Shown: positions 6,646-59,845 of the stretch, in pieces
Layout: each line of letters opens with the position of its first letter
Numbering within the stretch: the stretch's first letter is position 1
Source: a virus
Direction: 5' to 3' (one strand)
Length of the DNA: 64,000 nucleotides
Virus record (IMG/VR): IMGVR_UViG_3300032323_001800
Span: 96,001-160,000 of that record
The notes under the pieces: model-generated
Told to the model about the DNA's origin: nothing
Database searches by the model: none
What the model saw: only the letters and a program-made list of their open reading frames with translations
Program-made: the position numbers and the translations under genes

Positions 6646-7193
6646 AATATCAATACTATCTAATTTCAGATTTTTTAGATTGTGAAGAAATTAAAGAACT
6701 TAATCGAACATTAGAAAATAATGTTTCTAAAAATAATCAAGAAGTGCTGTTTGATGGAAACTATAAAAAAACTAGTGTTGTGTATTCTATACAACACAGC
6801 CATGTCTGGGATCAACTTGATAGATTTAGAAATATGATTCATTACACGAACAGAAATTATTTTGGATTAGATCTTTTTGAAATTTCAAAATATAGTACAG
6901 TAAATTATAATGTATATAATGGAGATGACTATGGTCAATATACATGGCATTCTGATGCTGAATTTAATCAATGTTATGACTTAAAATTAACTGCATTATT
7001 AAATTTATCAACTGAAGAGTTTTTAGGTGGTGATCTTATTTTATTTTTATCAGGCGAATATAAGATAGACGATTTTAATAAACCGGGATCATTATTAATT
7101 TTTCCAGCATGGACCCAACATAAAGTTACTCCCGTTACCAGTGGGGTTAGAAAAACGTTAAGTTTTTGGGCAGCAGGACCAAATTTGAAATGA
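6642..7193 (+). CDS. 2OG-Fe(II) oxygenase (PKHD/prolyl-hydroxylase-like)
   Basis: HxD (WHSD), KLTALLNL, GGDL, distal His (QHKVTPV) and 2OG-binding Arg (GVRKTL). Confidence 0.85.
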   Translation: MKYQYYLISDFLDCEEIKELNRTLENNVSKNNQEVLFDGNYKKTSVVYSIQHSHVWDQLDRFRNMIHYTNRNYFGLDLFEISKYSTVNYNVYNGDDYGQYTWHSDAEFNQCYDLKLTALLNLSTEEFLGGDLILFLSGEYKIDDFNKPGSLLIFPAWTQHKVTPVTSGVRKTLSFWAAGPNLK

Positions 7194-7426
7194 GCACGGA
7201 CAGTCACGATCGAATGATCAAAGCATTTCAAGAATATTTCAAATGGCAAGAGCGATTTGAATACAAAGGCTCAGACGAAGCAGGCATCAAGGCACGATAT
7301 TGGTTATCAGAAATACGTAACGAGGCATCAACTAGGCGTGTAGAAATACAAGATAAAAGAGAACAAAGAAAAGCAGCCAGAAAAGGCATACTAGGCAGAC
7401 CTCCCAAGGTAACTAAAGGTACATGA
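7190..7426 (+). CDS. Small basic hypothetical protein
   Basis: ATGA overlap with the upstream stop sets the start at 7190. It has a Lys/Arg-rich C-terminus and overlaps the next gene by 4 nt. Confidence 0.7.
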   Translation: MSTDSHDRMIKAFQEYFKWQERFEYKGSDEAGIKARYWLSEIRNEASTRRVEIQDKREQRKAARKGILGRPPKVTKGT

Positions 7427-9590: not shown

Positions 9591-9785
9591 TTAAAAGAAC
9601 GGTAGTCCTGATTTTTTAGTTGTTTCAAAATTTTCTTTGATTATATCGTCTATAATATCTCTTTCGTCAGAAGTTAAATTCATAGACTCGGCGTAGCTAA
9701 TACCGCCTCTCATATACCAAACAGTTCTAAGAGCGTTAGCTTTTATTATCTTGACTTCTTTTTCCATGGCCTCCGACTCCGCCAA
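9591..9785 (-). CDS. Baseplate hub assembly catalyst-like ORF (gp51-like), probably expressed as a -1 frameshift extension of the upstream gene
   Basis: Has ISYAESMNLTSDERDII, resembling the gp51-type motif. No obvious SD; the frame is open back to the slippery site at 9827-9821. Confidence 0.55.
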   Translation of the reverse strand: MAESEAMEKEVKIIKANALRTVWYMRGGISYAESMNLTSDERDIIDDIIKENFETTKKSGLPFF

Positions 9786-9805
9786 GATGCTAGGGATATC
9801 TAGTG

Positions 9806-10660
9806 TCAGGAGGCGGCGCCGAAAAAATCGGCTTGGTCAAACGATAAATTAACTTGATACTGATGCTTACAATGTGGGCATTCAGTTGATAACGCATCAA
9901 TCTTTCCAGCATCTCTTGATTTAGATACAGCATCCTGTACTAAAGAAAATATCTTTTTATCTGTGTTAGCTAAAAATTCTTTAATAAACGCAGTATCAGT
10001 AACAATACCCGCAGAACATTCAATCTTGTCAATTGAATCAGACACAGTGTCTATGGTTAATTCAGTTAATTTAATAAAACTAGTTTGAAATAATTCTAAT
10101 TTTTTATCATCGGATATTGATTCATCATTGACGATTGAAAAAATTCTCTGTTGTTCAAAGGTTTTTAATGCTGTTCTTGTAATTTGATCATAGGTTAAAG
10201 GTCTGATCCAAAGCAGCATGTCATTATCTACTTCAAGACGAGTTGAAAACTCTATCTGTCTTAGGCTGTCTAATAGATTTCGAAGATCAACCATTTTTTC
10301 GTCTTGCTCATTACAGTTAGGACATGTAGTACCTACCTCCATTTCTTGACCAAATGTAGCATATCTTATAGATATTAGTACTGCATCGACGTCGATAGCT
10401 GGCATGAACCAAGGATTTTTAATATTGGGCACACAGCTTTTTATAACTTCGACCGTTGAAGCGCCATTCATAAGCGCATCCGGTGTGCGCATCAACAGCT
10501 CGTCTTTAGCAGTCATGGCAAACACCGGTAACTCTCCATTTTCCGGCATGTCTAATGCGTTTGGTGGATAGAATTTTCCTTTGCTAGGCAAGGTCATATA
10601 GATCTTTGGTTGTCTAAAAAACTGCGATAGCGGATTTTTTACCTGATTGTTTTGTTCCAT
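9806..10660 (-). CDS. gp26: Baseplate hub assembly chaperone, T4 gp26-like
   Basis: IYMTLPSKGKFY, FAMTAKDELL, DAVLISIRYATFG, two CPxC Zn motifs. Start set at ATG 10660 (GGA SD); the 59-aa extension in the track runs across the divergent promoter region. Confidence 0.75.
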   Translation of the reverse strand: MEQNNQVKNPLSQFFRQPKIYMTLPSKGKFYPPNALDMPENGELPVFAMTAKDELLMRTPDALMNGASTVEVIKSCVPNIKNPWFMPAIDVDAVLISIRYATFGQEMEVGTTCPNCNEQDEKMVDLRNLLDSLRQIEFSTRLEVDNDMLLWIRPLTYDQITRTALKTFEQQRIFSIVNDESISDDKKLELFQTSFIKLTELTIDTVSDSIDKIECSAGIVTDTAFIKEFLANTDKKIFSLVQDAVSKSRDAGKIDALSTECPHCKHQYQVNLSFDQADFFGAAS

Positions 10661-32653: not shown

Positions 32654-35600
32654 ATGGCAGAATTTAAATTAGGTAGATTAAGATTTGTATGGAAAGGTAG
32701 CTGGGTTACTGGTACCACATACGTTAAAGACGACATCGTAAAATACGGTGGTACAACATATGTTTGTGTATCGGGACATAATGCTAACGTCAATTTTGAT
32801 GTTGATTTAACATCATCAAGATGGGAAAAACAAACTGGCGGCCAAGAGTGGAAAACAGCCCCATGGACGATATCTACCATTTACAAAGAAGGTGATTTAG
32901 TAAAATATGGCGGTCGAGTTTATATTTGTACAGATAATCATACAGCAAGCGCAACCGTAGCAGGTGGATTTTATTTAGATGAAACCGCTAATCGTTGGGA
33001 CTTGTTTTCTGATGGTTCAGAATGGGTAGGCAATTGGCAAGTTAGTGAATATTATCGCATTGGCGATATTGTAAAATACAATGGTATTTCTTATATTTGC
33101 GTAGCTCCTCACACATCAGCAGCAACTATTACTTTAGGGTTAGAAGCAGACTACGCCGACGACAGTACTACAAAGTGGGAAAAGTACGTAGAAGGATTTA
33201 AATATCGCGGTGAGTGGAACGGATCTAGTGATCCGCTTTCAAGAACATCAACTAGATATATTGTAAATGACGTTGTTAAATTTGGTGCTAGTCTTTACAT
33301 ATGCGTTGAAGCACATACAAGTAATGCTACTGCGTTTGAAGAACTTAAATGGGATCTATTTGTAGCAGGTTTAGAATATGAAGATACTTGGTCAGCATTG
33401 ACAGAATATCAAACTGGTGATATTGTTTCATATGGTGGTTATGCGTATGTTGCAGTAAGAAGAAATACCTCACAAATCCCCCCAACCGCAACATCTGATT
33501 GGGATTTATTAACCACAGGTTTTAATAATCGAGCAAGATATGTATCTTCTCAAAGTTATAAGGTAGGTGATTTAGTACAGTACGGCGGCAATGTCTTTGT
33601 TGCCTCTGTAGAAATAACATCAAACGAAACCCCATACAGTGCTAATGCTAAGTGGTCAAAAATCATAGACGGTTTTAGATGGAACAATGATTGGGATTCA
33701 GCATTTGCTGAGACAAAATATAAAATTGGTGATGTGGTAAAATATGCGTCATCTACTTATATTTGTATTGACGAACATATACCTGCCGATGAAACTGTAA
33801 TCACAATTACAAACACCACTACTGGCACAAATCATATTACTACTTCTGATAATACTTCTACACTAAATCCAGGTCAGCCAGTAAGCTTTTCTGGCACAGC
33901 ATTTGGCGGTATCAACGCAACAATCGAGTATTATGTTAAAACAGTAGTTAATGGTACAACATTTACTATATCTGAAATTAAAAGCGGTCCAACTAAGGTA
34001 TTGAGTACTGCTTCTGGTTCATTGGCTATGAGTTACAGCAACAGACCAGATACAGACAACGGTGACTTTTGGAATTCGTTGGCAGAAGGTGACGCTAACA
34101 ACGTTCTAACACGTCGAGGAGATTTAGTAACCCGCAATGCTATCCAAAACGTTAAGTTAGCCAAAGGTGCTGAAGGTACTGTATTAAAAGCAGGCGCAAG
34201 AGATTTACAATGGGGCAAAGTTGGCGACTTAACTAGAATTTTTTACGTATCCATTGACGGACAAGATGGTGTCGGCCGAGGAACTACTTGGGATGATCCG
34301 TGGAGAACCGTAAAATATGCCTGCGAATTTGTTCAAGCACAAGGATTTAATACTAGAGATACTCCAGTAACCATTAACATTAAAGCAGGTGTATATCAAG
34401 AAATATTTCCAATTAGTATTCCTAAATACACATCTTTAGTCGGTGACGAATTACGTATGAGTATTATAGAGCCGACAGCAGCAACGTCCGGCAATGACAA
34501 GTTCTACATGAGAGATAGTACCACAGTTCGAAACTTTACGTTCCGCGGAGCAACTGGTGCTAATTTACCAGACGGTACAACAGATACATTTACTGAACCT
34601 AATCAATATCTAACTAGACGCCCAACTGGCGGCCCATGGTGTTCATTAGATCCAGGAACCGGTCCAAACGACGAAAGTGTATGGGTAGGTGAGCGTTCTC
34701 CTTACATTCAGAACGTAACAACCTTTGGTGATTATGCAGTGGGTCAAAAAATTGACGGTGCTCTACACAACGGCGGTAATAAATCGATTACGTCTAACGA
34801 CTTTACACAGGTTATGAGTGACTCTATTGGTGCTTGGTGTACCAATCAAGGTCGAGCAGAATTAGTTTCCGTATTTACATACTATGGTTATATCGGATAC
34901 CTGTGCGAAAACGGCGGTGTTATTCGAGCTACAAACGGTAACTGTTCATATGGTTCGTTTGGTGCTGTATCTGAAGGTGTTGATCCTACAGAAATTTCTA
35001 GAACTGCTACTGTTGATAACCGAAGATTAAATGCTACAGTTGATAGAGTGCAGACTGACGGTAATCAAATTTTATATGTAGAATATTCAAACGCAGGTGA
35101 GGAATATACAACAGCAACATACGGTTTTACAGGAACTGGTATATTTGACTCTGTTACCTCAATACCAGATATTGTTGACGGTGGTGTCTGCGAAGTTCGT
35201 ATCGTTGATGACGGAAATGATTATCTATCTGTTCAGGGCAATGCACAAGCCGGAACTAACATAGATATTAGATTAGCGGCTGCTGATACAACTATTACAA
35301 ACGGATATATTGGCGAACGAATAATTCTAATCGACGGCCAGGGAGTTGGCCAATACGGATATATTACCAGCTTCGACGGTGGTTCTAAATTAGCCACAGT
35401 GGCTAGAGATACATTTGATACCCTAACAATTACTAATACAACATCTAGCACAAACGTAGTTACAGTTGCTGATACAACATCACTTTTTGCCGATATGCCA
35501 TTTACTGTAACAGGTACAGCGTTTGGTGGCCTTGATGTTGGAATACAATATTATGTCAAGGCAGTAGTTAATAGTGCAACATTTACAGTATATACTAACA

Positions 35601-38600
35601 CATCTACCAAAGCAGCTATTACGTTATCAACTAGTTCTGGTCTTTTAACCCTACATCAGTCAGGTTGGGATGTATTCATTAAAGACATTTCAGCATCAAT
35701 TCAAACAATTTCTAAAGCAAATCCTGTCGTAGTTACTACAACAGTTGCTCATGAATTATCGACCGGCATGCTTGTATCGATATCCGGTGTAACTGGTATG
35801 ACAGAAGTTAATGGTAATAGTTACTATATTACTAAAACAGGTCCTACAACATTCGCGTTATATACGAATTTCAGTAGAACTAGTACTCTAGATGGCACCG
35901 GATTTACAACATATGTATCTGGCGGAACAGCCGTGGGCGAACAGGCAATTTGGGAATTTTTAAACACCACAACAAGATACGTAATTGAACCTAGAATTGT
36001 GTTTTCTACTGGTCAGGGAGCAAGTGCTACCGCTGTTCAAACACCAGGTATTAATGAAATAGCTGTTTCAACAGGGGGTGGAGGATTTACAGTTCCACCA
36101 ACAGTTATCATTTCCGGCGACGGAACACCAACAGGCGGCACTGGCGCAACTGCAACTGCGGCAATTTCTGGAGAAATAGAAAGCATAGTTGTGTCTAATG
36201 TTGGATCTGGTTATACATCTGCGCCAACGCTGAGGTTCGTAGGCGGCGGTTTAGCAAATAACAGCACCAATCATGCCGAAGCCACAGTAAGCATTACGAA
36301 TACAATTAAAACTGTTGAGGTTACAGATGGGGGGTTAGGTTATACATCTCCGCCATCTGTATTAGTAACAGGCACCGGCGGCTCTGGAGCAATTCTCTCT
36401 GCACAAATTAGCCAGGTTGTTGGATCCATAAATATTGGTGGTGGCGGCGGTTCAAATTATACTTCTCCTCCTACAGTAACAATTACAGGAGGCGAACCAT
36501 TAATTTTTGCCGAAGCAAGAGCAGTTCTTTCAGCATCAGTAACTACTATTACTATGCAAGAAGGCGGCAGTGGTTATAATCCGAGTACTACATCGGTAAC
36601 ATTGTTTAGTACAGCTGGTTTCGGAGCAGCAGCAGAAGCCATTATTGATAACGGATTATGGGTAGATGGAGTTACACCTGGAATTGTTACAGGAATAAAT
36701 GTTACGGCATCTGGATCAGGGTATTCAGTACCACCGATTGTTATTATCAACGGTGTCGGAAGCGATGCTGCGGCTACTGCTAATATTTCTGGATCTGTAG
36801 CTAGTATCGAAGTTATCAATCCGGGTCGAGGATATCAAAGTGTTCCTAACGTTGCTATTTCAGGCGGTAACGGCGCAGGCGCAACCGGAACAGCATCTTT
36901 AACTGGCGCGGTGTTTAGTCTTACTGTGATCGACGGCGGTCGCGGATGGATAGGAACACCTTCGATTGCGTTCAGTGGTGGCGGTGGTGTAAATGCTGCT
37001 GCTAATGTTACCGCTATGGATAGTGTTCTTGGAACAGTGGTTATTACTGATCCAGGATCTGGATATACTAGCAACCCTGCTGTATCATTAGTAGGCGGTG
37101 GCGGCACTGGCGGAATTTTAAGAACTCGAATCAACGGAATTATTTCAACTATCACAGTAACCGATTCCGGTGGTAGTTACAGTTCTAGTCCTCAAATTAC
37201 ATTTGTTGGAGGAAATAAATTTAAAAGCTCGTTTGCTGGTTTAAGATATTTTGCTAATAGCAGCGGCCGAGTCGCTATTGGAATAACCCAGTCACTACAA
37301 ACATTAGCAGCGATTGAACAAATTCGAATTACTTCTAGAGCGGTAATTGCAAATACTGCCCCTGCAACGGTATATCAAACAGCGGTTGCTAGAGTTACAG
37401 CAGGTGGAGGATTCGTAACGCCAACTGGCATTCAAGCAGCAGTTGATATTTGGGTTCGATCAGTTTATTATACTATCGAAAATGGTGAAAATCACACCGA
37501 CCCTGCAAGCTTGTTGAGACTCAACAGAGAGTTTATTAGAAAAGAATTAATGGAATTTTGGGATGCTAACTACCCAACTATAGCTACATCGGTATGGTCT
37601 AGAGATGTGGGATTAATTGTTGATGCCATTGCTTCTGATATTTCAACTAGAGGAGTAGAAAATTCTTTAAATGCTGCTATTAGTCAGGCATTCCTCGGAA
37701 CTGCCAGAACAAATGGTGGAAATTTAGCAGCCGCTCAGGCAGGTATTGATTATATCATAGAACTAGCAGATGACATTATTCAAAATTCTATAATTCAACC
37801 TAGCGGCTCTACATTATTAACAGTTATTCCAGTAACTGCCACACAAATTACAACCAATCAAATCACTGTCGGTGATACTTCGACATTATCGGAGAATCAA
37901 CCGATATTGTTTTTAGGTACAGTGTTTGGCGGATTAGTTGCTAATACTAGATATTATGTTAAGACCATTGTTAATAGTACTACGATTATAGTTTCATCTA
38001 CAATCGGAGGAAATGCTGTAACATTAACGACTGCTTCCGGTACTTGTTCCCTAAGCCAACAGGTAACTGACGAAGAATTATTATTGTCAGACGGAGCAGA
38101 TGTTGCTGTTGCCAATTGCTTAGGTTTAATTAGATTTATTGTTTCTACTGCAGCCAATGGCGTTGCTAATGCTTCAACATGGACAACTGCTGCTAATCTA
38201 TTATTATCTAACAAAGATTTTATTAGAGCAGAAGTTATTACCTTTATTAACGCAACTTATATAGACTTTGATTATAATCAAGTATTGTGCGCTAGAGATG
38301 TCGGCTTAATAATTGATGCGGTAACATACGATTTAGTTAAAGCTGTTTCTAATATTCCAGTAGTTACATCAACTACTACTGGAGTTATTTCGTCGATTAC
38401 TGTTAATAACGGCGGACTTGGTTATAGTTACGGTATGACAGTAAGCGTAGCAGTTGGTTCTTCAACAGTAAGAGCAACCGCAGTGCCGATTATTGATGAA
38501 ATAACTGGAGCCATTACCTCATTTAGAATGACCAATAAAGGTAAGGGTTATACAACAGTACCTTCTGTGACATTGACCCCAGACACTGGCACTGGAGCAT

Positions 38601-41600
38601 TTGCTAGGGCACTAGTTATTGGATCGCAAGTAACGGGTGTGACTATTATTAGACCCGGTTCAGGATATAGCGCAGGCCCTCATATTTCTTTAGTAGATGC
38701 TAATAATACAGAAAATGCTAGATTTATAGTAAGAGTCGGCGACGGAGTACTAGATCAGCCTAGATTTACACGAAGAGGTGAAGGATACGTTACAGCCGAT
38801 GCGTTAGTTGACGGTGACGGATATGCTGACGTGGCACAGGTTGGAGGATTTGTATATATTGATAATCTAACCAACGTTCCAACTCCTGGTGCAAATATTC
38901 AGTTCGACAACAACGAGAAATTCTACAAGTTGGTAACCATTCGAGAAGTGACTGGCCCTGCTGGGGTAGTAGGAGCTAGACAGATTCTTTTAGAAAACAA
39001 AGAGTTTATCCAGTACGAAATTATCAGTTACCTAAATAATTTTACATATGATTCTATAAAATGTAGTAGAGACGTTGGCTATATTATAGATGCGCTGGCC
39101 GACGACTATACTTACGGATCAAACGCTAGAATCTTACAGGTAGTGTCAAAATACAATCGAGGCACTTATGAAGAATTTGAAACTCAAAGAATTCAAACAG
39201 CATTTGCTATTCAGCATTTAAAGTCTGAAATCGATTCGTTATTAAATGATTCAACTTACAGTCTAGGTGCGTCTGCAGGATTAAATCCATTGATTGAATG
39301 GATTAAAAATGAAGAAAGATTTGAAAATCTTCCAGCGATTCAAATACCTAATGGAAATTTTGATGTAGAAGACGACCGAGCAAAAAATGTTATCCTAGCC
39401 AACGAAGCGTTTATTGTAGATCAAGCTGTGAATTATTTGCTCAACAATGACTATATGGACGGCTTTGATGAAACTGTCGTTGGAGACGAGGTTAGACAGA
39501 TTGTAAGAGCAACAGCATGGGATCTAGCGTTTGAAGGAAACGGCCAATCGATAGAATGGGCAAGCTCTATTTACATTGACAGTACTTTGACTATCCCGGG
39601 TTCTACAGACAGTGCTGCAGATAAAGCAGACTTTTTATTATTGCTAACTTATCTTTCAACAATGATTGGTTCTGTAGCTAGAAATCAAATCCCAACAATC
39701 GAAGTTGGAGTAACTGAACTTCAAGTCACTACATTACCGCCAGGAAATACTGATTCAGCAACTAGAATCGGTAACTTAATAGGCGACGTAATGTACGATA
39801 TTGTTGATCTAAGCCCGGCTACTGCGATACCTGCATCAGTGACTCCGTTAGGATCATCATTTAGTGGCTTTGGTACAAGTGTTAGAACCAGTCTGTTAAA
39901 TGATAAAGCAGCTCTGCGTAGTTCGGTTATCAGTTGGATTGATGACAATTTTGTGAATTTTACCTACGATCAAGATGTCTGCTTTAGAGATACCGGATTA
40001 ATTATCCAAGCCGTTGCTGATGACATTTACGGCGATGTTGCTAAGTCAATTGAAGCCGGTCAACGATATTATGCTGCAACCGCTGCTTTGGTATTAAGCG
40101 AACAGAAGCCGCAAACTATTGCTGCTATAAGACAAATAAATTTTATAGCTCAAAAAGTTATTAGAAATGAAACATACGTTAGAACACAGACTAATGCTCT
40201 GCAGTCAAGATTCCCAAGTATTACTACAGGAGCAGAAGCTGGTCCGCAAATCGAAGAATCAACTTTTATTATTAGCCGAATCTTAGAAAACGGCGGATCA
40301 TTTAATGCTATCAAGCAATTAATGTTGGATAATAAAGTATTCATACAGTCAGAAATTGTTGCTTATGTTTCAGCATCTTACGAAAATCTAAATTATAGTG
40401 TAGATTTATGTTTTAGAGACGTTGGTTTAATTGTCGATGCTATTGCTTATGATATTTTTGGTGGATTCTCAAGAAGTAGAGAAGCAGGATTAAGATACTA
40501 TCAAAGCGATAGTGCGATTGCTTCTATTACAGGTGATCAAGCAGAACCAACTAGGGACGCATTAGAATATCTTGGAACTGTTATTAATTCAGTGTTGCTA
40601 GATCAAGACCCCGAAATTAGATTCCAACAAGCTGTTGAAAGATCAAGAGACTCGACTATTATATTTGATGTTGAGGACTTACAAGTAACTGTAAAAGTTA
40701 CTGACTGCATAGATGAAATTTTAAACATCATAGATAACGGTCCGGGAGCGTTACCAGAAGGTCGATACTCAGCTAGGTTCCAAATTAGTCCTCCGTTGAG
40801 CATTCTAGAAGCCCCACTACACAATTCTAACGTTGTTGTAAGAAGCAGATATTCGCAGGTTCGACTAACTGGACATGACTTTTTAAATATTGGTACTGGT
40901 AATAAAAATGATACCAACTATCCAGGAATTCCTCTAAACGAGCCGAATTCTGTAAGAGAAGTTGTTGAACAGGGCGGCGGCCGTGTATTCTATACATCAA
41001 CAGACCAAGACGGTAACTTCCGAGTTGGTGACTTGTTCCGAGTTGAGCAATCAACTGGTATTGCTACGTTGAACGCTGATGCGTTTAACTTAAGCGGTTT
41101 GAATGAGTTGTCATTGGGAGGGGTTAGCTTAGGAGGATCAGGCGCTGTTATTAATGAATTCTCAACAGACTCGACATTCTTTGCTAATGCTGATAATATT
41201 GTTCCAACACAAAAAGCTATTAAAACTTATATTCAGTCAGCACTAGGTTCAGGTGGTGGTAATATTGCGGTTAACGCGGTAACAGCAGGTGATACGTTTA
41301 TTACTGCTAACGAAATTGACACCATTGGCGGACTACAATTAAGATTGTTATCATCGTTAGGTGTATTCATAGCTTCTAGCGAATTTTCAACTAATACAAC
41401 TACTGGTGCGTTAATTGTAGGTGGCGGCGTTGGTATAGCAGGAAACTTAAATGTAGGTGGCACAGCAGCATTTGATGGTAATTTAACTGTTAATAGCAGC
41501 GGATTTGTAAAAATAGCCACAGGTAATACCTCCCAACGAGTTGTTTCGACCGCGGGCGCATTTAGATTTAATACAGATACTGCTAGATTTGAGGGATATA

Positions 41601-41923
41601 ATGGAACTCAATGGGCTGATGTGGGAGGAGCTAATCCGTATCTTGATAGGGCTGCTCCGTACGCGGCAGTTGCTGGGGATCGATTGTTTGTAAATACAAG
41701 CTCTGGATCAGTTACAGTCACACTACCAGCAAATCCAGCAATTGGGGACACTGTTAAGTTTATTGACGGCTCTGGAACGTTTGATATTAACGCTCTGGTA
41801 ATTAATAGAAACGGCAAAGTTATTATGGGCGACGCAGATAATATGACAGTAAATACAAAGAACGCAGCATTTACTCTTGTATTTTATAACAATACATACG
41901 GATGGAGGCTAGGAGAAGCATAA
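32654..41923 (+). CDS. Giant modular tail-fibre-like protein (3089 aa)
   Basis: N-terminal CBM5/12-like repeats, beta-helix, GGxGY repeats, helical C-x-R-D repeats, and a C-terminal T4 gp34-like module (TVTLPANPAIGDTV...INRNG). TAAATA at 32609-32614. Confidence 0.8.
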   Translation: MAEFKLGRLRFVWKGSWVTGTTYVKDDIVKYGGTTYVCVSGHNANVNFDVDLTSSRWEKQTGGQEWKTAPWTISTIYKEGDLVKYGGRVYICTDNHTASATVAGGFYLDETANRWDLFSDGSEWVGNWQVSEYYRIGDIVKYNGISYICVAPHTSAATITLGLEADYADDSTTKWEKYVEGFKYRGEWNGSSDPLSRTSTRYIVNDVVKFGASLYICVEAHTSNATAFEELKWDLFVAGLEYEDTWSALTEYQTGDIVSYGGYAYVAVRRNTSQIPPTATSDWDLLTTGFNNRARYVSSQSYKVGDLVQYGGNVFVASVEITSNETPYSANAKWSKIIDGFRWNNDWDSAFAETKYKIGDVVKYASSTYICIDEHIPADETVITITNTTTGTNHITTSDNTSTLNPGQPVSFSGTAFGGINATIEYYVKTVVNGTTFTISEIKSGPTKVLSTASGSLAMSYSNRPDTDNGDFWNSLAEGDANNVLTRRGDLVTRNAIQNVKLAKGAEGTVLKAGARDLQWGKVGDLTRIFYVSIDGQDGVGRGTTWDDPWRTVKYACEFVQAQGFNTRDTPVTINIKAGVYQEIFPISIPKYTSLVGDELRMSIIEPTAATSGNDKFYMRDSTTVRNFTFRGATGANLPDGTTDTFTEPNQYLTRRPTGGPWCSLDPGTGPNDESVWVGERSPYIQNVTTFGDYAVGQKIDGALHNGGNKSITSNDFTQVMSDSIGAWCTNQGRAELVSVFTYYGYIGYLCENGGVIRATNGNCSYGSFGAVSEGVDPTEISRTATVDNRRLNATVDRVQTDGNQILYVEYSNAGEEYTTATYGFTGTGIFDSVTSIPDIVDGGVCEVRIVDDGNDYLSVQGNAQAGTNIDIRLAAADTTITNGYIGERIILIDGQGVGQYGYITSFDGGSKLATVARDTFDTLTITNTTSSTNVVTVADTTSLFADMPFTVTGTAFGGLDVGIQYYVKAVVNSATFTVYTNTSTKAAITLSTSSGLLTLHQSGWDVFIKDISASIQTISKANPVVVTTTVAHELSTGMLVSISGVTGMTEVNGNSYYITKTGPTTFALYTNFSRTSTLDGTGFTTYVSGGTAVGEQAIWEFLNTTTRYVIEPRIVFSTGQGASATAVQTPGINEIAVSTGGGGFTVPPTVIISGDGTPTGGTGATATAAISGEIESIVVSNVGSGYTSAPTLRFVGGGLANNSTNHAEATVSITNTIKTVEVTDGGLGYTSPPSVLVTGTGGSGAILSAQISQVVGSINIGGGGGSNYTSPPTVTITGGEPLIFAEARAVLSASVTTITMQEGGSGYNPSTTSVTLFSTAGFGAAAEAIIDNGLWVDGVTPGIVTGINVTASGSGYSVPPIVIINGVGSDAAATANISGSVASIEVINPGRGYQSVPNVAISGGNGAGATGTASLTGAVFSLTVIDGGRGWIGTPSIAFSGGGGVNAAANVTAMDSVLGTVVITDPGSGYTSNPAVSLVGGGGTGGILRTRINGIISTITVTDSGGSYSSSPQITFVGGNKFKSSFAGLRYFANSSGRVAIGITQSLQTLAAIEQIRITSRAVIANTAPATVYQTAVARVTAGGGFVTPTGIQAAVDIWVRSVYYTIENGENHTDPASLLRLNREFIRKELMEFWDANYPTIATSVWSRDVGLIVDAIASDISTRGVENSLNAAISQAFLGTARTNGGNLAAAQAGIDYIIELADDIIQNSIIQPSGSTLLTVIPVTATQITTNQITVGDTSTLSENQPILFLGTVFGGLVANTRYYVKTIVNSTTIIVSSTIGGNAVTLTTASGTCSLSQQVTDEELLLSDGADVAVANCLGLIRFIVSTAANGVANASTWTTAANLLLSNKDFIRAEVITFINATYIDFDYNQVLCARDVGLIIDAVTYDLVKAVSNIPVVTSTTTGVISSITVNNGGLGYSYGMTVSVAVGSSTVRATAVPIIDEITGAITSFRMTNKGKGYTTVPSVTLTPDTGTGAFARALVIGSQVTGVTIIRPGSGYSAGPHISLVDANNTENARFIVRVGDGVLDQPRFTRRGEGYVTADALVDGDGYADVAQVGGFVYIDNLTNVPTPGANIQFDNNEKFYKLVTIREVTGPAGVVGARQILLENKEFIQYEIISYLNNFTYDSIKCSRDVGYIIDALADDYTYGSNARILQVVSKYNRGTYEEFETQRIQTAFAIQHLKSEIDSLLNDSTYSLGASAGLNPLIEWIKNEERFENLPAIQIPNGNFDVEDDRAKNVILANEAFIVDQAVNYLLNNDYMDGFDETVVGDEVRQIVRATAWDLAFEGNGQSIEWASSIYIDSTLTIPGSTDSAADKADFLLLLTYLSTMIGSVARNQIPTIEVGVTELQVTTLPPGNTDSATRIGNLIGDVMYDIVDLSPATAIPASVTPLGSSFSGFGTSVRTSLLNDKAALRSSVISWIDDNFVNFTYDQDVCFRDTGLIIQAVADDIYGDVAKSIEAGQRYYAATAALVLSEQKPQTIAAIRQINFIAQKVIRNETYVRTQTNALQSRFPSITTGAEAGPQIEESTFIISRILENGGSFNAIKQLMLDNKVFIQSEIVAYVSASYENLNYSVDLCFRDVGLIVDAIAYDIFGGFSRSREAGLRYYQSDSAIASITGDQAEPTRDALEYLGTVINSVLLDQDPEIRFQQAVERSRDSTIIFDVEDLQVTVKVTDCIDEILNIIDNGPGALPEGRYSARFQISPPLSILEAPLHNSNVVVRSRYSQVRLTGHDFLNIGTGNKNDTNYPGIPLNEPNSVREVVEQGGGRVFYTSTDQDGNFRVGDLFRVEQSTGIATLNADAFNLSGLNELSLGGVSLGGSGAVINEFSTDSTFFANADNIVPTQKAIKTYIQSALGSGGGNIAVNAVTAGDTFITANEIDTIGGLQLRLLSSLGVFIASSEFSTNTTTGALIVGGGVGIAGNLNVGGTAAFDGNLTVNSSGFVKIATGNTSQRVVSTAGAFRFNTDTARFEGYNGTQWADVGGANPYLDRAAPYAAVAGDRLFVNTSSGSVTVTLPANPAIGDTVKFIDGSGTFDINALVINRNGKVIMGDADNMTVNTKNAAFTLVFYNNTYGWRLGEA

Positions 41924-43579: not shown

Positions 43580-45046
43580 ATGAAAAATGTAAAATCTATT
43601 ATTATTTTGGGTGGCGGAACTGCTGGATATGTAACCGCACTTATACTAAAACAAAAATTTGGGGTCAATATCGATATAACGATAATTTATTCAAGTAAAA
43701 TTGGAATTATTGGAGTCGGTGAAGGATCTACTGAACACTGGGCAGATTTTTTAAAATTTGTAGAAATTGATCACGCAGATGTAATAAAAAATTGTGATGC
43801 TACGATCAAATGCGGAATAATGTTTAAAGATTGGGGAGATCAAGATTATCTACACAATGTTTCCCCACCGTACGATCAATCATGGGGACAAACCAGAATA
43901 GGTTATTTAAAATTAATTGCCGAAGGAGCCAAGCCATTTGACATAGTCCAAAAAGAAATGTTAGAAAATAAAGTTCCAAAAAGACATGCTATCGAAAGAA
44001 CCTCTCCAGTTAATCAGTATCATTTTAATACATTTAAACTTAACGAGTTTCTAACAAACAAAGCCAAAGAACGAGATATTACAGTAATCGATGACGACAT
44101 ATTAGATTCAACTTTAAATGAGCAAGGAGAAATCGATTGTTTAATCGGTGAAAAAGCCAAATATCATGCTGACTTTTTCATCGACAGCACTGGATTTAAA
44201 AAGCTGTTAATTTCTAAATTAGGGGCTAAATGGCAATCATATAAAGAATTTTTAAAACCAAAAGCAGCAATGGTGTTCCCCACAGGTGACACAGAAAATT
44301 ACAACTGCTACACTACTGCGACTGCTATGAAATACGGATGGAGATTTAATATTCCAGTGTTTGGTCGTCATGGCAACGGATACATTTATGATAGTGATTA
44401 CGTTACAGCAGATCAAGCACATCAAGAGCTAGAAAGAGATTTTGGTAGAAAAATTGATATCGCCAAACACATCACTTTTGATCCTGGGGCATTAGATCGT
44501 CCTTGGATCAAAAACTGTATGGCTGTAGGTCTTGCTGCTAATTTTATAGAACCTCTCGAGGCTAGCTCGATAGGATCATCTATACAGCAGGCCTATTTAC
44601 TGATGCACAATTTACCTAACTACAATGACAAAACTATAGAGTTTGTTAATAGACAAATTAATTCTATTACAGATAACATACGTGACTTTGTTGCCCTACA
44701 TTATATGACAACTAGGTCCGATACTGATTTTTGGAAAGATTTAAAATCCATGCCAGTTCCTGAGTCACTGTCTAACAAATTAGAACTATGGAAAACTCGA
44801 CTGCCTATCGAAGATGACTTTACCGATAGTTCGAACTATATCATGTTCTACGAAAGAAATTTTATAATGGTAATGCATGGACTGGGGTTAATTGATCAAG
44901 AAGCAATACGCAAGGAATATGCTTCATTAAATAATTATCATAAAGATGCTATAACTAAGCTTCTGGAACAAGAAAAAATAAGATATAAAAACGAAAGTTT
45001 TTTAACACATAAACAATATTTAGAATTAATTAGAGCAACCAGATAA
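43580..45046 (+). CDS. Flavin-dependent halogenase, tryptophan halogenase (PrnA) family
   Basis: GGGTAG FAD motif, IGVGEGS, catalytic-Lys region ATIKCGIMF, FIDSTGF, WRFNIP, FIEPLEAS. Confidence 0.85.
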   Translation: MKNVKSIIILGGGTAGYVTALILKQKFGVNIDITIIYSSKIGIIGVGEGSTEHWADFLKFVEIDHADVIKNCDATIKCGIMFKDWGDQDYLHNVSPPYDQSWGQTRIGYLKLIAEGAKPFDIVQKEMLENKVPKRHAIERTSPVNQYHFNTFKLNEFLTNKAKERDITVIDDDILDSTLNEQGEIDCLIGEKAKYHADFFIDSTGFKKLLISKLGAKWQSYKEFLKPKAAMVFPTGDTENYNCYTTATAMKYGWRFNIPVFGRHGNGYIYDSDYVTADQAHQELERDFGRKIDIAKHITFDPGALDRPWIKNCMAVGLAANFIEPLEASSIGSSIQQAYLLMHNLPNYNDKTIEFVNRQINSITDNIRDFVALHYMTTRSDTDFWKDLKSMPVPESLSNKLELWKTRLPIEDDFTDSSNYIMFYERNFIMVMHGLGLIDQEAIRKEYASLNNYHKDAITKLLEQEKIRYKNESFLTHKQYLELIRATR

Positions 45047-45056
45047 GGAGAAAGTA

Positions 45057-45443
45057 ATGAGTGGTTTAGCAAAATCAAGTGTAACAGGTGAAGATATAAC
45101 TCCCGGATACGATTATGGATCTATATCTGATAGGGATAAACAATTGCTTGGTGAGATCATTAATATTTTAAAAAATAGAAAAGATGTGCCGACCGATTTA
45201 GTAGCAGAAGAAATTAAAGGCATTTTTGGAATGGAGGATATTCCAATGATGAATGTCGAAGAAACTTTGTGGTATCAATTAACTAAAGATGAACCATTAG
45301 GTCAAAATATACAAGGTTTTAGAATCTCTCTCGACGAACAAAAAAATAAAATTAAAGTTCCATTTATTGCTTTTCAAGCAGACTTAGATTTTTTAGACGG
45401 ATTTATTAATCGCTTGGTTCAAAAAGTTAATAATTTAAAATAA
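45057..45443 (+). CDS. Hypothetical protein in the modification operon
   Basis: 128-aa ORF with AAGGAG SD. Confidence 0.65.
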   Translation: MSGLAKSSVTGEDITPGYDYGSISDRDKQLLGEIINILKNRKDVPTDLVAEEIKGIFGMEDIPMMNVEETLWYQLTKDEPLGQNIQGFRISLDEQKNKIKVPFIAFQADLDFLDGFINRLVQKVNNLK

Positions 45444-45445
45444 GC

Positions 45446-47116
45446 ATGAGAATATTAAGCATATCGCCTTTTCACGATAGCAGTGTAGTTATTGTCAATG
45501 ATGGAAAAATTGAATATTTCTGTAAAGAAGAAAGACTCACTAGACATAAAAGAGACCATCTTCCGATTAAATCTTTAACGGAAGCATTTAGAATTGCTAA
45601 AGGTCAGATTGACCTAGTGGTAATTTGTTCTCCTACAGGTGATGACGAGCATAACAGATATTTAGAACATATCATTAAAAAATATACAGACGCTAAAGTT
45701 ATTAGGTTCTGTGAGCACCATCATTTGGCACATGCTAGTCTTGCGTTCTATGACAGCGGATTTGATAAAGCATTGGTAGTTGTTGTTGATCGATCAGGTG
45801 CAAAGTTTAATGATAACATACGAGAGGGCGAAAGTGTTTTCATCGCCGAGTACCCAAATAAATTTACTCCGGTATATAAATCATACTGGGCATGCAATAT
45901 CGGTGCTGATTATGATTTTGATAATTTTGAACTTATTTCAGAAATAACAAAAGTATGGCCACAGTGTGAAGCACAGTGTAGTGGCACACTAAACGTTGCC
46001 AAAGTTTATGAATCAGCAACAACCTTAATTGGACAACACCCTTTAGAAAACGGAAAGACTATGGGTCTCGCTGCCTACGGTATAGACAGACCATTTAAAT
46101 CATTATTTGATGCCGATAATAATCCTGTAAGTTCGTTGTTTTCCCATTACAAAGATTTTGACTATGCTTATCCTTGTTTTTTAAAAGAGCATTTAAATAA
46201 AAATTTACCCAAAGGTAAAATTGTGCCTCAAGATGATTATCAATTTTATGCTGATTATGCATATCAGGTTCAAAAACAAACTCAGGAATCTTTATTAAAG
46301 CTGATAAAAAGAAAAATAGAAGAAACTGGAATCGACAAAGTGTGTATTACTGGAGGCTACGGATTAAACGTAGTTGCTAACGAATATTTTGTTAGAAGTT
46401 TGCCCGACGTTAAATTTTTCTTCGAACCTATATCAGACGATACTGGAAATAGTATTGGATCAGCACTTTATATCTATAGAAACGAAACTCGAGATAAAAC
46501 TATTAGAAAACTTGATAACTTATTTTTTAATCACATACCGCATAGCTATGAGATCGAAGGAATTGAAGCTAGCGAAACTGATTTAGCAACCTTACTGTCG
46601 CAAGGTAAAATCGTAGCAGTATATAATAGTCAAGCTGAAGCGGGTCCCCGCGCTTTGGGAAATAGATCTATCTTATTCGATCCAAGAAATGCACAGTCTA
46701 AAAAGATAATTAACAAAGTTAAGAATCGTGAATGGTACAGGCCGTTTGCTGGCTCGGTTCTTAAAGATGATGTTCAAGAATATTTTGAAACACATGGCTT
46801 AACCGAATCTCCATTTATGACTGTGTCATTTCAAGTTAAAGAAGATAAGAAAAATATCATACCTGGTGTTGTTCATGTTGATGGATCATGCAGAATACAG
46901 ACTGTTGATGAATCGATTTCTCATTTTTATAATGTATTAACTGAGTTTAAAAAGATTACTGGGGTATCGGTATTATTAAATACCAGTTTTAATTTAGCCG
47001 GAGAGGCGTTAGTTGAAACACCGGACGATGCAATTAAAACATTTAACAACAGTAGCATCGATGTATTGTGGTTTCCAGAAAAGAAAAAAATTCTAGTGAA
47101 GGATAAAGAGAAATGA
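45446..47116 (+). CDS. O-carbamoyltransferase, NodU/CmcH/TobZ family
   Basis: HDSSV, KEERLTR, HHLAHA, GKTMGLAAYG, GGYGLNVVAN, EAGPRALGNRSIL, REWYRPFA, LLNTSFN. Confidence 0.92.
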   Translation: MRILSISPFHDSSVVIVNDGKIEYFCKEERLTRHKRDHLPIKSLTEAFRIAKGQIDLVVICSPTGDDEHNRYLEHIIKKYTDAKVIRFCEHHHLAHASLAFYDSGFDKALVVVVDRSGAKFNDNIREGESVFIAEYPNKFTPVYKSYWACNIGADYDFDNFELISEITKVWPQCEAQCSGTLNVAKVYESATTLIGQHPLENGKTMGLAAYGIDRPFKSLFDADNNPVSSLFSHYKDFDYAYPCFLKEHLNKNLPKGKIVPQDDYQFYADYAYQVQKQTQESLLKLIKRKIEETGIDKVCITGGYGLNVVANEYFVRSLPDVKFFFEPISDDTGNSIGSALYIYRNETRDKTIRKLDNLFFNHIPHSYEIEGIEASETDLATLLSQGKIVAVYNSQAEAGPRALGNRSILFDPRNAQSKKIINKVKNREWYRPFAGSVLKDDVQEYFETHGLTESPFMTVSFQVKEDKKNIIPGVVHVDGSCRIQTVDESISHFYNVLTEFKKITGVSVLLNTSFNLAGEALVETPDDAIKTFNNSSIDVLWFPEKKKILVKDKEK

Positions 47117-47880
47117 ATCTAGAACATTCTTATTATTGGTTTAAAGAAGCAATATCCCCAGAAGATTGTCAAAAAATTATCGACCTTGGTCTTTCTACTT
47201 TAGAAAAAAATAAAAAAGATGGAAAAAATACCGCTGGAATTACCTACGGAGGCATGGAAAAACAATCAAAAGCCGAAGCCGTACCTCTGCAGGATAAAAC
47301 CTTGCAAGAAATAGCCGAAGAAAAAAATATTTCAGCAAAAGAAGTTGAAAAAAGTGTTTATGTAAGAGACAGCGAAGTTGCCTGGTTAGACGATACTTGG
47401 CTTTATGATCTGTTAATGCCATACATATACAAAGCAAATTATGAAACTGGTTGGAATTTTGAAATTGACAATGCTGAACATTTTCAATTTACAGTCTACC
47501 ATCCGGGAGGATTTTATGGTTGGCACGTAGATGGAAAGTCAGACCACTCGGGAAAATTAAAAAGATATTTGCCAGGAATCACACCATTAAACAAAGACGG
47601 AAGAGCTCCTTTATCTTATACTGCAAATCCTAATCATGTAGGAAAAATTAGAAAAATAAGCATGACACTGAATCTAAATAATCCTGGCGAATATGATGGC
47701 GGTAATTTAACTTTTGATTTTGGGCCACACGCACTAAAACGATATCACGAATGTGAAGAAATAAAACCTCAAGGCTCATTAATTGTTTTTCCATCGTTTG
47801 TATATCATCAAGTTACTCCAGTAACTAGGGGTACTAGATATTCGTTAGTGTTATGGACATTGGGACAACCTTTTAAATAG
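47113..47880 (+). CDS. 2OG-Fe(II) oxygenase (PKHD-type)
   Basis: GWHVD, RKISMTLNL, YDGG, YHQVTPVTRGTRYSLV. Confidence 0.9.
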   Translation: MNLEHSYYWFKEAISPEDCQKIIDLGLSTLEKNKKDGKNTAGITYGGMEKQSKAEAVPLQDKTLQEIAEEKNISAKEVEKSVYVRDSEVAWLDDTWLYDLLMPYIYKANYETGWNFEIDNAEHFQFTVYHPGGFYGWHVDGKSDHSGKLKRYLPGITPLNKDGRAPLSYTANPNHVGKIRKISMTLNLNNPGEYDGGNLTFDFGPHALKRYHECEEIKPQGSLIVFPSFVYHQVTPVTRGTRYSLVLWTLGQPFK

Positions 47881-47888
47881 GATTTATT

Positions 47889-48677
47889 ATGAATGATTTA
47901 ATTTCAAATTGGGACGAGTTATCCGAATCTCAAAAAGAAGCAGTATTGAAACAAATGGAAGAATCTCCAAATTTTGAAAAAATAGAAGAGCCTAATCCGG
48001 GAACATTATTTTTTCAAGCAACAGGTTGGGCAAAGATTGAAAATTTTATTAGTAAAGAAATGGCATCGTTGTTTTATCACCATGTCAAACTATCTGCTGA
48101 ACGATTAGCGTATATTGAAAATAAATTTCCTGAAAAACTTAACGAAGATTACTACGGATCGTTCGGTGACGGCCAATCTCCGGATTTTTCTCGATACGGT
48201 GATCCGATTTTTGATGCTCTGGTTGATACTTCTTTAAGAAAAGTGGAAGAAATAACTAATGTTCCGTTATTTTCTAATTACAGTTATTATAGATTATATA
48301 CAACAGGATCGATTTTAGAAAGACATATTGATCGTCCTAGTTGTGAATATTCTGTAACAGTTTGTTTAGGATACGATGTTAGTAATGTTGATCAAAATAT
48401 ATACCCAAGTTACGACTGGCCTATGTTTGTAAATAATCAAGGAATGGAACTGCCAATTCATTTAAAACCGGGAGATGCTATCATTTATAAAGGTTGTGAA
48501 GTTGAGCACTGGCGAGATCCGTTCTGGGGGTTGAATCATGCACAGTTATTTTTACATTACTCAAAAGTCAATGGTCAATTTAATATTAAAAATGATGGCA
48601 GAGCAATTTTAGGACTTCCTGGATCTTTTAGATCTGAAGAATCTATGAGTATAGGTTTCGAGCCTGCTAAAAAATGA
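47889..48677 (+). CDS. 2OG-Fe(II) oxygenase
   Basis: LERHIDRPSCEYSVT, LKPGDAIIYKG, EHWR, QLFLHY. Confidence 0.8.
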   Translation: MNDLISNWDELSESQKEAVLKQMEESPNFEKIEEPNPGTLFFQATGWAKIENFISKEMASLFYHHVKLSAERLAYIENKFPEKLNEDYYGSFGDGQSPDFSRYGDPIFDALVDTSLRKVEEITNVPLFSNYSYYRLYTTGSILERHIDRPSCEYSVTVCLGYDVSNVDQNIYPSYDWPMFVNNQGMELPIHLKPGDAIIYKGCEVEHWRDPFWGLNHAQLFLHYSKVNGQFNIKNDGRAILGLPGSFRSEESMSIGFEPAKK

Positions 48678-49279
48678 TTTTATATTTGTTTCCAATTCCC
48701 ATTTACTTAGAAAAAAATACAGATATGATTTCTGTAGGTTCTAAATTATTTGAAATTTGGCCAGAAGATACTCGCTTCAATGGATTTTTCAGTACTACAC
48801 TAAAGGGAGAATATTGTCCTTATAAAGCTCCAGTAACATGGGAACTAACTGAAGTTGCCGAAGCACAACCGTTAATAGAATATATTAAAAAATCAGCAGA
48901 ACAATATCTGCAGGAAAATAAGAATAGACCGCATTCTGTTAAAGTTCAAAATATGTGGCTGAACGAGATGGCCAGCGAAACTCGACACCCCAAACATTCT
49001 CATTATGGATATAGCATCAGCGGAACATTTTATGTAGAAGTTCCAGAAGGATCAAATAAATTAGGATTTTATAATCCTCTAGACGGCGTCGGACATATGA
49101 TAGGACCAGAATCTCAAGAAAGTTGGACTGTAAGTAACGCAATGTCTTGGTGGGTTCCGGTCGAAGCCGGTAATATAATTTTATTCCCCTCGCATATCGA
49201 GCACGAAGTTCCTCCTATGAAATTCCAAGGGCTAAGAAGATCTATATCTTTTGACTTGGTTTTATTACCAATAGAATAA
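48674..49279 (+). CDS. Putative 2OG-Fe(II) oxygenase (TIGR02466-like)
   Basis: MWLN, HPKHSH, ISGTFY, ILFPSHIEHEV, RRSISF. Confidence 0.8.
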   Translation: MILYLFPIPIYLEKNTDMISVGSKLFEIWPEDTRFNGFFSTTLKGEYCPYKAPVTWELTEVAEAQPLIEYIKKSAEQYLQENKNRPHSVKVQNMWLNEMASETRHPKHSHYGYSISGTFYVEVPEGSNKLGFYNPLDGVGHMIGPESQESWTVSNAMSWWVPVEAGNIILFPSHIEHEVPPMKFQGLRRSISFDLVLLPIE

Positions 49280-49292
49280 AATTAGATATCAA

Positions 49293-49973
49293 ATGACTAT
49301 AGAATTATCTCAATTAATACTGCATAAAAAAGAATTTTTAACCTCTGACGAATGTCAATTTCTAGTCGAAGAATATGAAAAAAGAAATCAAGAGTTCGTA
49401 CTAGAAAAATGTCCAGAAGCTAATACAAATATTGATACGTTTAGCACATTTAAAAGAATAGATTTAAGACACGGAACAGATGCGTTTAATATTGTTCATT
49501 CTGCTACTGAACGTATGATAAATCTTTATCACGATTATTTAGATACATTTAAATCATTTCATACACAGTATAGAGAAACATTGATGTATAGTCATATGTA
49601 CAGATTGCTAAAATATGAAACTGGTGCTAAAATACATCCGCATACAGATCACGATCCGTTCGTATATGGTAGTTGCACTTTTAATCTAAACAATGACTAT
49701 ACTGGTGGAAATTTTAGTTTTTGGAACGGAAAACATAAAATAAAATTAGGTAAAGGGGATGCTCTAATTTTTCCAGCGGATCATTTTTGGGTACATGAAG
49801 TGGAACCGATCGAGTCAGGAGTTAGATATAGTACCAATAGTTTTTTACAGAAAATTCCATCTCCGCTAAAAGATAATATATTTGAATATTTAAAGTATAA
49901 CAGCAACCCGAACGATCCAAGAAATTTTGATGGGACGAGATATAACATAACCGAGAAAAAAACAAATGCCTGA
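49293..49973 (+). CDS. Prolyl 4-hydroxylase-like 2OG-Fe(II) oxygenase
   Basis: LLKYETG, HPHTD, YTGGNF, HEVEPIESGVRYS. Confidence 0.85.
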   Translation: MTIELSQLILHKKEFLTSDECQFLVEEYEKRNQEFVLEKCPEANTNIDTFSTFKRIDLRHGTDAFNIVHSATERMINLYHDYLDTFKSFHTQYRETLMYSHMYRLLKYETGAKIHPHTDHDPFVYGSCTFNLNNDYTGGNFSFWNGKHKIKLGKGDALIFPADHFWVHEVEPIESGVRYSTNSFLQKIPSPLKDNIFEYLKYNSNPNDPRNFDGTRYNITEKKTNA

Positions 49974-50589
49974 ATTTAAAGTTTATAATTTATGGCCAGT
50001 ACCGATATACGAAAACGTTATTCCTGTTGAACAACACTGGCTTTCATCTATCGATTTGTTAGATTTCGAAAGGATGAAATCTGGAAACGGTAATATAACC
50101 GTTGATAGGAATGTTTTACTTAGACCGGAATTTTCTGATTTAAAAACTAAGATTGAAGAGCATTGTAAATTATATACTAAAAATCTATTATCAATAAGTG
50201 ATCGAACAACTTTCTATATTCAAAATTCTTGGGTTAATATCCATCACCCAAACGATTGGGCACAATCACATAGACATGCGAATAGTTTAATTTCTGGTTG
50301 TTTTTATTTAAAGATTCCTGAAAATTCTGGGAATATACAATTTATAAAAAATCAGTGCTGGACGACAGTGTTTCCAACAGCAATAACTTTTGATTACGAT
50401 AACATTAATCACATAAATTCTGAATTTTGGAATATCGAACCAGCCGAAGGAACGATATTATTGTTTCCTTCCCACATTCTTCATTCGGTTGAAACTAATA
50501 ACAGCAGTGAAAATCGATACTCCCTAGCTTTTAATTTATATGCAAGGGGGTCTTTAGGACACGACGAGTGTTATTTGGAACTGAGATGA
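49966..50589 (+). CDS. Putative 2OG-Fe(II) oxygenase (TIGR02466-like)
   Basis: SWVN, QSHRH, ISGCFY, LLFPSHILHSV, RYSLAFN. Confidence 0.82.
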   Translation: MPEFKVYNLWPVPIYENVIPVEQHWLSSIDLLDFERMKSGNGNITVDRNVLLRPEFSDLKTKIEEHCKLYTKNLLSISDRTTFYIQNSWVNIHHPNDWAQSHRHANSLISGCFYLKIPENSGNIQFIKNQCWTTVFPTAITFDYDNINHINSEFWNIEPAEGTILLFPSHILHSVETNNSSENRYSLAFNLYARGSLGHDECYLELR

Positions 50590-59179: not shown

Positions 59180-59215
59180 AAAGTGATAAATAATAATACC
59201 CGGAGCATAAAGAAT

Positions 59216-59845
59216 ATGGCAATTTCAACACTATCAAGATTATCAGTTCCATTAGCGAGTGACGCTTCAGCAAGCTCACAAGGTCTGCTAATGCCAAAAC
59301 TAAAGTATCGCTTTAGAGTGGTATTACAAGGCTTTGGCGCAAATGGAGTAGCAACAACAGAATTAACCAAACAGGTTATGGATGTAACTCGTCCTAAAGT
59401 TCAATTTGAAGAAATTGAAATTCCTGTATATAACAGCAGAGTTTATCTAGCTGGACGTCACCAATGGGATCCATTAACGCTTAATGTGCGTGATGATTCG
59501 AGTGGTAACATTCAACGATTATGCGGTGAGCAAATTCAGAAACAATTTGATTTCTTTGAGCAAGCGTCAGCAGCATCGGGTATTGACTACAAATTTACCA
59601 CAGTTATCGAAGTGTTAGATGGTGGTAACGGAACACAAACTCCAAACGTTCTAGAAACATTTGAATGTTATGGCTGTTTTGTTCAAAACATCGATTACGG
59701 TGATATGAATTACACCTCAAATGAAGCAGCAACAATTAACATGTCAATTAGATTCGACAACGCCGTACAATACAAAGGCGGAGCAGTTGATGGTATTGGT
59801 CGTAACATTGGTGCTAGAACCCTTGGGGCCCTAACAACTGGATAA
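59216..59845 (+). CDS. gp19: Tail tube protein
   Basis: Follows the sheath gene; KLKYRFRV, VTRPKVQFEEI, AGRHQWDPLTL. Start set at 59216, downstream of TAAATA. Confidence 0.85.
   Translation: MAISTLSRLSVPLASDASASSQGLLMPKLKYRFRVVLQGFGANGVATTELTKQVMDVTRPKVQFEEIEIPVYNSRVYLAGRHQWDPLTLNVRDDSSGNIQRLCGEQIQKQFDFFEQASAASGIDYKFTTVIEVLDGGNGTQTPNVLETFECYGCFVQNIDYGDMNYTSNEAATINMSIRFDNAVQYKGGAVDGIGRNIGARTLGALTTG

Follow-up and report, generated by a model that had tools for sequence, protein, structure and literature searches.

Phage lambda makes its proteins gpG and gpGT by way of a conserved -1 frameshift (Levin et al. 1993; Xu et al. 2004; both as cited in a passage of PMC2147016). In another phage, G/GT is replaced by two paralogous genes (Hardies et al. 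2007, PMC2147016). For T4, the model contractile phage, Table 2 of Leiman et al. (2010, PMC3004832) lists gp26 and gp51 as 'hub assembly chaperones'; the same paper calls gp51 essential, gives its function as unknown and places it outside the finished particle. Accounts of T4 contradict each other as to whether gp26 is in the virion, and the role of the two proteins in hub assembly has been unclear for decades. In the literature outside subscription journals, we found neither the slip described here nor any frameshifted tail chaperone reported for T4 or related phages.

We analysed a stretch of 64,000 nucleotides (the window), corresponding to bases 96001-160000 of a 187,929-base IMG/VR virus record that is estimated to be about 53% complete. 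Its source is an uncultured giant T4-related phage, and T4-type portal, prohead protease, major capsid, baseplate wedge and tube genes are present in the window. Inside the structural region, a series of genes at 43580-50589 resembles auxiliary metabolism; it comprises four 2OG-Fe(II) oxygenase-like genes, a gene for a Nol-type carbamoyltransferase, and one gene each resembling tryptophan halogenase and ferrochelatase. Two ORFs of baseplate-wedge size (1309 and 1402 aa) are followed by a single ORF of 3089 aa at 32654-41923.

On the minus strand of the window, a gp26-like gene in all likelihood yields two proteins through a genuine -1 frameshift, as judged from comparison of sequences, and this frameshift is very probably kept in a large share of contractile-tailed phages. 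The locus comprises the following elements:

10660-9806, minus strand: gp26-like baseplate-hub assembly gene, short form (PF12322 and phrog_150 'baseplate hub')
9827-9821, minus strand: slippery heptamer U_UUU_UUC, in frame (Asp-Phe-Phe), in the X_XXY_YYZ register
9591-9821, minus strand: -1 frame extension, 76 codons and a TAA stop; all relatives conserve it from the first codon onward
9814-9805, minus strand: 5' arm of a putative stimulatory stem-loop, GCCUCCUGAC, with U9808 bulged; it begins 6 nt past the heptamer and includes the 0-frame stop
9777-9769, minus strand: 3' arm of the same stem-loop, GUCGGAGGC; it includes an SD-like GGAGG just upstream of ATG 9767
9765-9785, minus strand: candidate internal starts TTG 9785-9783 and ATG 9767-9765, for a free-standing product of 64 or 58 aa
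10740-13427, plus strand: divergent neighbour, 895 aa, carrying a GH19-type lysin domain (PF00182, phrog_181)

The short form, which ends at the stop codon TGA 9808-9806, is an acidic protein of 284 aa (32.2 kDa, pI 4.7). It matches PF12322 'T4_baseplate' with an E-value of 1.2e-13 and 51.7 bits (curated cut-off 24.5), its residues 50-281 falling on profile positions 21-218 of 219, and its structural matches in BFVD are baseplate-hub proteins without exception. The closest cultured relatives are the jumbo myoviruses Atu_ph07, Phosso, PA5oct and the RaK2/121Q/CBB group, at 26-36% identity. The start Met (ATG 10660) is invariant in 32 relatives; an alternative start at ATG 10672 would give 288 aa. 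A 343-aa version of the gene, present in the ORF list, was rejected, the real start being one of these two codons. Two CxxC pairs are also invariant in the 32 relatives (C114/C117 and C262/C265 in the numbering of that comparison), which suggests a four-Cys metal site. Some homologues (P0002, P0003 and P0006) bear the JGI label 'bacterioferritin-associated ferredoxin', probably because of these pairs.

An AlphaFold2 model of the gp26-like protein has a pLDDT of 82. Searched against the PDB with Foldseek, it returned nothing at E <= 0.001, and a VIA-wide search gave only generic helical hairpins (residues 153-222, Z of about 8). A sequence profile search of the PDB was equally empty. None of these searches brought up a solved relative or a tail assembly chaperone.

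The gene ends GAT TTT TTC GGC GCC GCC TCC TGA on the minus strand, as described in the first-pass annotation, whose coordinates for the locus all hold. The in-frame U_UUU_UUC that it had singled out as a slip site is indeed found at 9827-9821, and its X_XXY_YYZ register is correct. The -1 frame, which had been described as open from the slip site, runs for 76 codons from C9821, beginning RRRLLTLDIPSILAESEAMEKEV, to TAA 9593-9591. Residues 1-280 together with this extension make a long form of 356 aa and 40.6 kDa, with the junction ...QADFF/RRRLLTLD....

The 46 long ORFs of the window (about 20,000 codons) contain 128 in-frame X_XXY_YYZ heptamers. Three of the 128 sit at a gene end (46 ends in all) and are followed by at least 50 open -1 codons, because the next gene happens to occupy the -1 frame. 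With three such gene ends, the single-sequence signal is within chance; it is the comparative data that are remarkable. The other two ends, at 7180-7193 (next gene 7166-7426) and 45434-45443 (next gene 45446-47116), each have an in-frame heptamer immediately ahead of the stop, A_AAT_TTG and T_TTA_AAA, and a neighbour in the -1 frame. The downstream genes there start on their own codons, so both cases are probably due to chance.

Scanning IMG/VR with a profile yielded 80 loci whose proteins are 47-58% identical to that of the window and whose junctions comprise 57 distinct sequences; the junctions of 17 other phage lineages were taken from GenBank records. Conservation of the heptamer and of the open -1 frame in homologues had been put forward as a check on the frameshift, and both are kept throughout, in 80 of 80 IMG/VR loci and in the 17 lineages. 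Every IMG/VR locus combines an in-frame TTTTTTC with an open -1 frame and an extension of 75-76 codons, and in the 57 distinct sequences the heptamer and the next base, G, are 100% conserved. The arrangement occurs in Atu_ph07, Phosso, PA5oct, XaC1, CBB, XacN1, PHA46, GAP32 and a Vibrio phage, as well as in 121Q, RaK2, SCTP-2, Xoo-sp13, RAS14, the megaphage LR756511 and the cyanophages S-SM2 and C48C1; four lineages (XacN1, Xoo-sp13, RAS14 and C48C1) have T_TTT_TTT instead of T_TTT_TTC. In the 17 lineages the heptamer lies 0-11 codons ahead of the stop, and the 0-frame tails vary in length and sequence. The -1 reading runs for 60-80 codons in these lineages, and its conservation sets in at the very start with the pattern R-x-[RK]-[LI]-L, for example FFR-x-K-L-L-I-S-x-P-E-E-I.

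The codons at the site are always NNT TTT TTC in the 57 distinct IMG/VR junctions, against the codon usage of the genes themselves. Elsewhere in the same genes, Phe is written TTT in 78% and TTC in 22% of cases, 64% of Asp/Asn codons end in T, and other Phe-Phe pairs are mostly TTT TTT or TTC TTT. From the amino acids alone, the codon string of the heptamer would be expected with p of about 0.11 per independent lineage.

The 9-bp stem that had been proposed downstream of the slip site is confirmed: GCCUCC(U)GAC (9814-9805) pairs with GUCGGAGGC (9777-9769), with a spacer of 6 nt and a loop of 27 nt. It is the minimum-energy fold of the RNA folded from +5, at -16 to -17 kcal/mol. The window hairpin only marginally beats shuffled sequence (z of -1.5 to -1.9, with 4-6% of shuffles as good). 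When the 70 nt downstream of the heptamer were folded in 17 lineages, the z-scores were mixed, from +0.95 to -4.6, so the fold of a single sequence is an unreliable indicator here.

Comparison of the relatives is more telling of pairing. In the subclade of the window (12 sequences), the place equivalent to the window stem holds a 10-bp helix that is 92.5% paired; four of its pairs differ in both partners, and not one of 500 shuffles reached this level, a count that is not a probability, since the covariation controls leave relatedness in. When the partners of this helix are slid along each other, pairing falls to 32-51%. Compensatory changes include CUUUC/GAAAG for CCUCC/GGAGG of the window, and GAC/GUC for GUC/GAC; relative to its relatives, the window stem has a one-base bulge. 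The sister subclade (the other 45 sequences) has a different 8-bp helix, at 5-nt spacing and 91% paired, in which GC/AU swaps couple an Arg/Lys codon to synonymous Ile/Leu codon positions 24 nt away. Two helices at one spacing, with compensatory changes, have the look of a frameshift stimulator. Altogether, the programmed -1 frameshift proposed in the first-pass annotation is strongly supported by the invariant heptamer, the conserved -1 frame, scattered or absent start codons, synonymous constraint and the covarying stem.

We propose that normal decoding would stop at TGA 9808-9806 and give the 284-aa acidic protein, and that a fraction of ribosomes would slip back one base on U_UUU_UUC (9827-9821), helped by the stem-loop starting 6 nt downstream. 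The slipped ribosomes would read 76 further codons to TAA 9593-9591, giving the 356-aa form, which gains a small helical domain. The two forms would correspond to gp26 (short) and gp51 (long) and, from their position and by analogy, may act like lambda gpG/gpGT when the hub and tape-measure initiation complex of the tail is built. AlphaFold2 predicts the extension to be a small helical domain (pLDDT 89), with a long helix from residue 9 that begins upstream of both candidate internal starts. The predicted complex of the 76-aa extension with the tail tube protein of the window scored 0.00 and was counted neither way.

The two frames could also be two ordinary genes, the small ORF being translated alone from TTG 9785 or ATG 9767 into a product of 64 or 58 aa; we consider this improbable. 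The small ORF had been said to lack an obvious SD, which is wrong in detail: SD-like GGAG stands 9 nt and GGAGG 2 nt ahead of ATG 9767, so some independent initiation may take place in this phage. The GGAGG is the 3' arm of the stem, which hides these signals; in a variant of the two-gene scheme, ribosomes ending at TGA might melt the stem, expose GGAGG and thereby couple the genes. An ATG overlaps the stop (ATGA) in Atu_ph07 and Phosso and could serve translational coupling, and the records of other relatives annotate a separate small CDS, started at non-homologous internal Met codons.

Several observations speak against two such genes. Neither internal start is conserved, and most of the closest relatives have a Leu codon in place of ATG 9767. 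The first ATG, GTG or TTG of the IMG/VR extensions falls anywhere from residue 1 to residue 46, most commonly at 36, which is the Met of a conserved WYMRGG motif in mid-domain. The PA5oct extension has no ATG, GTG or TTG anywhere, and that of RaK2 has none before residue 30; in both records nothing is annotated over a conserved extension of 71-73 codons (RaK2, L018:2328-2543; PA5oct, L003:3858-4079). Conservation extends to the residues that precede any start, and these form the first helices of the predicted fold. Where the window pairs GGAGG with CCUCC, relatives pair GAAAG with CUUUC; this covariation points to selection for pairing, not for ribosome binding, and so accounts for the GGAGG upstream of ATG 9767. 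Finally, two separate genes would leave the fixed NNT TTT TTC codons without a reason.

The same long form would arise if RNA polymerase slipped on the run of six T and one U was added to some of the transcripts. Homopolymer runs are known sites of transcriptional slippage, for instance in Thermus dnaX, and here both the presence of such a run and an identical expected product fit this explanation. However, the run is just 6-7 nt long, position 7 is always C and position 8 always G, and a covarying stem at the classical spacing of 5-6 nt is expected for slipping of the ribosome instead, which makes slippage of the polymerase very unlikely. Least credible is a coincidence in which the heptamer mirrors a conserved Phe-Phe, an amino acid with TTT and TTC as its only codons, and the downstream gene lies in the -1 frame by accident, as at the two other junctions of the window: frame relation, codon choice and extension length are kept in all 97 lineages with the arrangement, and the remaining Phe-Phe pairs of these genes mostly use other codon combinations.

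Ribosomal frameshifting remains our preferred reading. A natural fusion speaks for it: P0121, a metagenomic protein of 352 aa with PF12322, has a window-type extension joined on in a single frame (junction FIF-RMRLL); it is known from the protein alone, so an assembly error is possible. In P0122, a truncated metallophosphoesterase N-terminus is joined to the last two thirds of the extension. Each could be a real rearrangement or an artefact of assembly or gene calling. In HSE3 (L025:2660-2901), a Bacillus phage, and BRock (L022:2260-2515), a Streptomyces phage, a homologous small ORF with a YF-x-R...ER motif lies in the +1 frame. No T_TTT_TTY is found at their junctions; TTT CGY stands at the place of the heptamer, and the +1 frame is open onward. 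These phages of Gram-positive bacteria may use a +1 slip (TTT to TTC), or the small ORF may simply be initiated independently.

The pairing with T4 gp26 and gp51, also suggested at first pass, stands: both are complete PF12322 proteins, and the tail of gp51 aligns with the cyanophage extensions. Against the full PF12322 profile, gp26 (208 aa; residues 1-206) scores an E-value of 9e-64 and gp51 (249 aa; residues 1-201) one of 4e-52, and the two are detectable paralogues. T4 gp26 ends in ...EFFELL, 3 residues past an FF that is encoded by TTC TTT and is not slippery. T4 gp51 runs ...VF-KLLV... into a tail of about 48 residues, 29-37% identical to the cyanophage extensions (YQIN...YSL...P-x-ER); the tail aligns in a joint alignment as well. 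From the profile matches and this tail, T4 appears to encode the short and long forms as two genes. In the T4-like cyanophages S-SM2 and C48C1, the small ORF carries the annotation 'baseplate hub assembly catalyst', which stands for gp51. The jumbo-phage extensions match the T4/cyanophage tails weakly in profile-profile comparison (hhalign, probability 22%); the window-type extension and the gp51 tail share their position, an R/K-L-L start and an S-x-x-E-R motif. On these alignments, it is well supported that the short and long forms are the counterparts of T4 gp26 and gp51.

The 895-aa neighbour is probably a tape-measure-like virion protein, a call made on indirect grounds: its homologues in CBB and PA5oct are abundant in the virion, and a likeness of the RaK2 homologue to a tape measure is noted in the record of that phage. 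BLASTP found no similarity between the neighbour and T4 gp29 or the HSE3 tape measure, a result that says little because tape measures diverge fast. The gp26-like gene adjoins the 895-aa gene but is divergent from it, not upstream, and the tube gene lies at 59183-59845 (PHROGs); a search of the phage record with PF06841 (T4 gp19) gave nothing. In HSE3 and BRock, the genes for sheath and tube are followed by the PF12322 gene, the small ORF and the tape measure, in this order, which is the classical slot of a frameshifted chaperone pair; the BRock tape measure is annotated 'endolysin'. In C48C1 the order is tube, gp26, gp51 and a large gene annotated 'peptidase'. As for the virions, the section of the CBB mass-spectrometry list that covers this region passes from CBB_247 to CBB_251 and omits 249 and 250, the gp26-like protein and the small ORF. 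In the PA5oct record, the neighbours of the hub gene are flagged as found by ESI-MS/MS, and the hub gene itself carries no flag.

The chances are about even that the frameshift goes back to the ancestor of the entire PF12322 family, which takes in jumbo phages, T4-like cyanophages and marine T4-likes, and that the T4 arrangement, with the two forms split into genes 26 and 51, is derived. In that case, gp26/gp51 would be the long-sought T4 counterparts of gpG/gpGT, acting on gp29 with a different fold. A conserved frameshift that joins gp26 and gp51 in most relatives would make them one functional unit in two forms, and it offers a testable model, that of a short/long chaperone pair at the tape measure. 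The annotation of thousands of phage genomes would be corrected as well, the extension being called a separate small hypothetical gene, started wrongly, or missed (RaK2, PA5oct).

Among the described systems, the phage of Hardies et al. offers a precedent for the two T4 genes 26 and 51 repeating the G/GT relation; its proteins are unrelated in sequence to those discussed here, and it has no frameshift, whereas the window probably has one. With T4, the window shares the PF12322 family: gp26 ends near FF like the short form, and gp51 resembles the long one. In contrast to the single gene with a probable frameshift in the window, T4 has a pair of paralogous genes that are placed divergently, and it lacks a slippery site; sequence identity between the T4 and window proteins is low, and the link between the window extension and the gp51 tail is weak at the profile level. 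The proteins also differ from those of lambda, which belong to another family and have about 140 aa, against about 280 aa with two CxxC pairs here; the heptamer of the window is U_UUU_UUC, its gene is divergent from the presumed tape measure, and no common fold was found in the searches made here. What the locus has in common with lambda gpG/gpGT is an acidic protein, two predicted products with a common N-terminus, of which the longer would result from a -1 slip close to where the short ORF ends, and a gene that adjoins the presumed tape-measure gene and, in HSE3, BRock and C48C1, comes after the tube gene. From gene position and T4 genetics, a mechanism like that of lambda G/GT is a reasonable inference, to which we give slightly better than an even chance.
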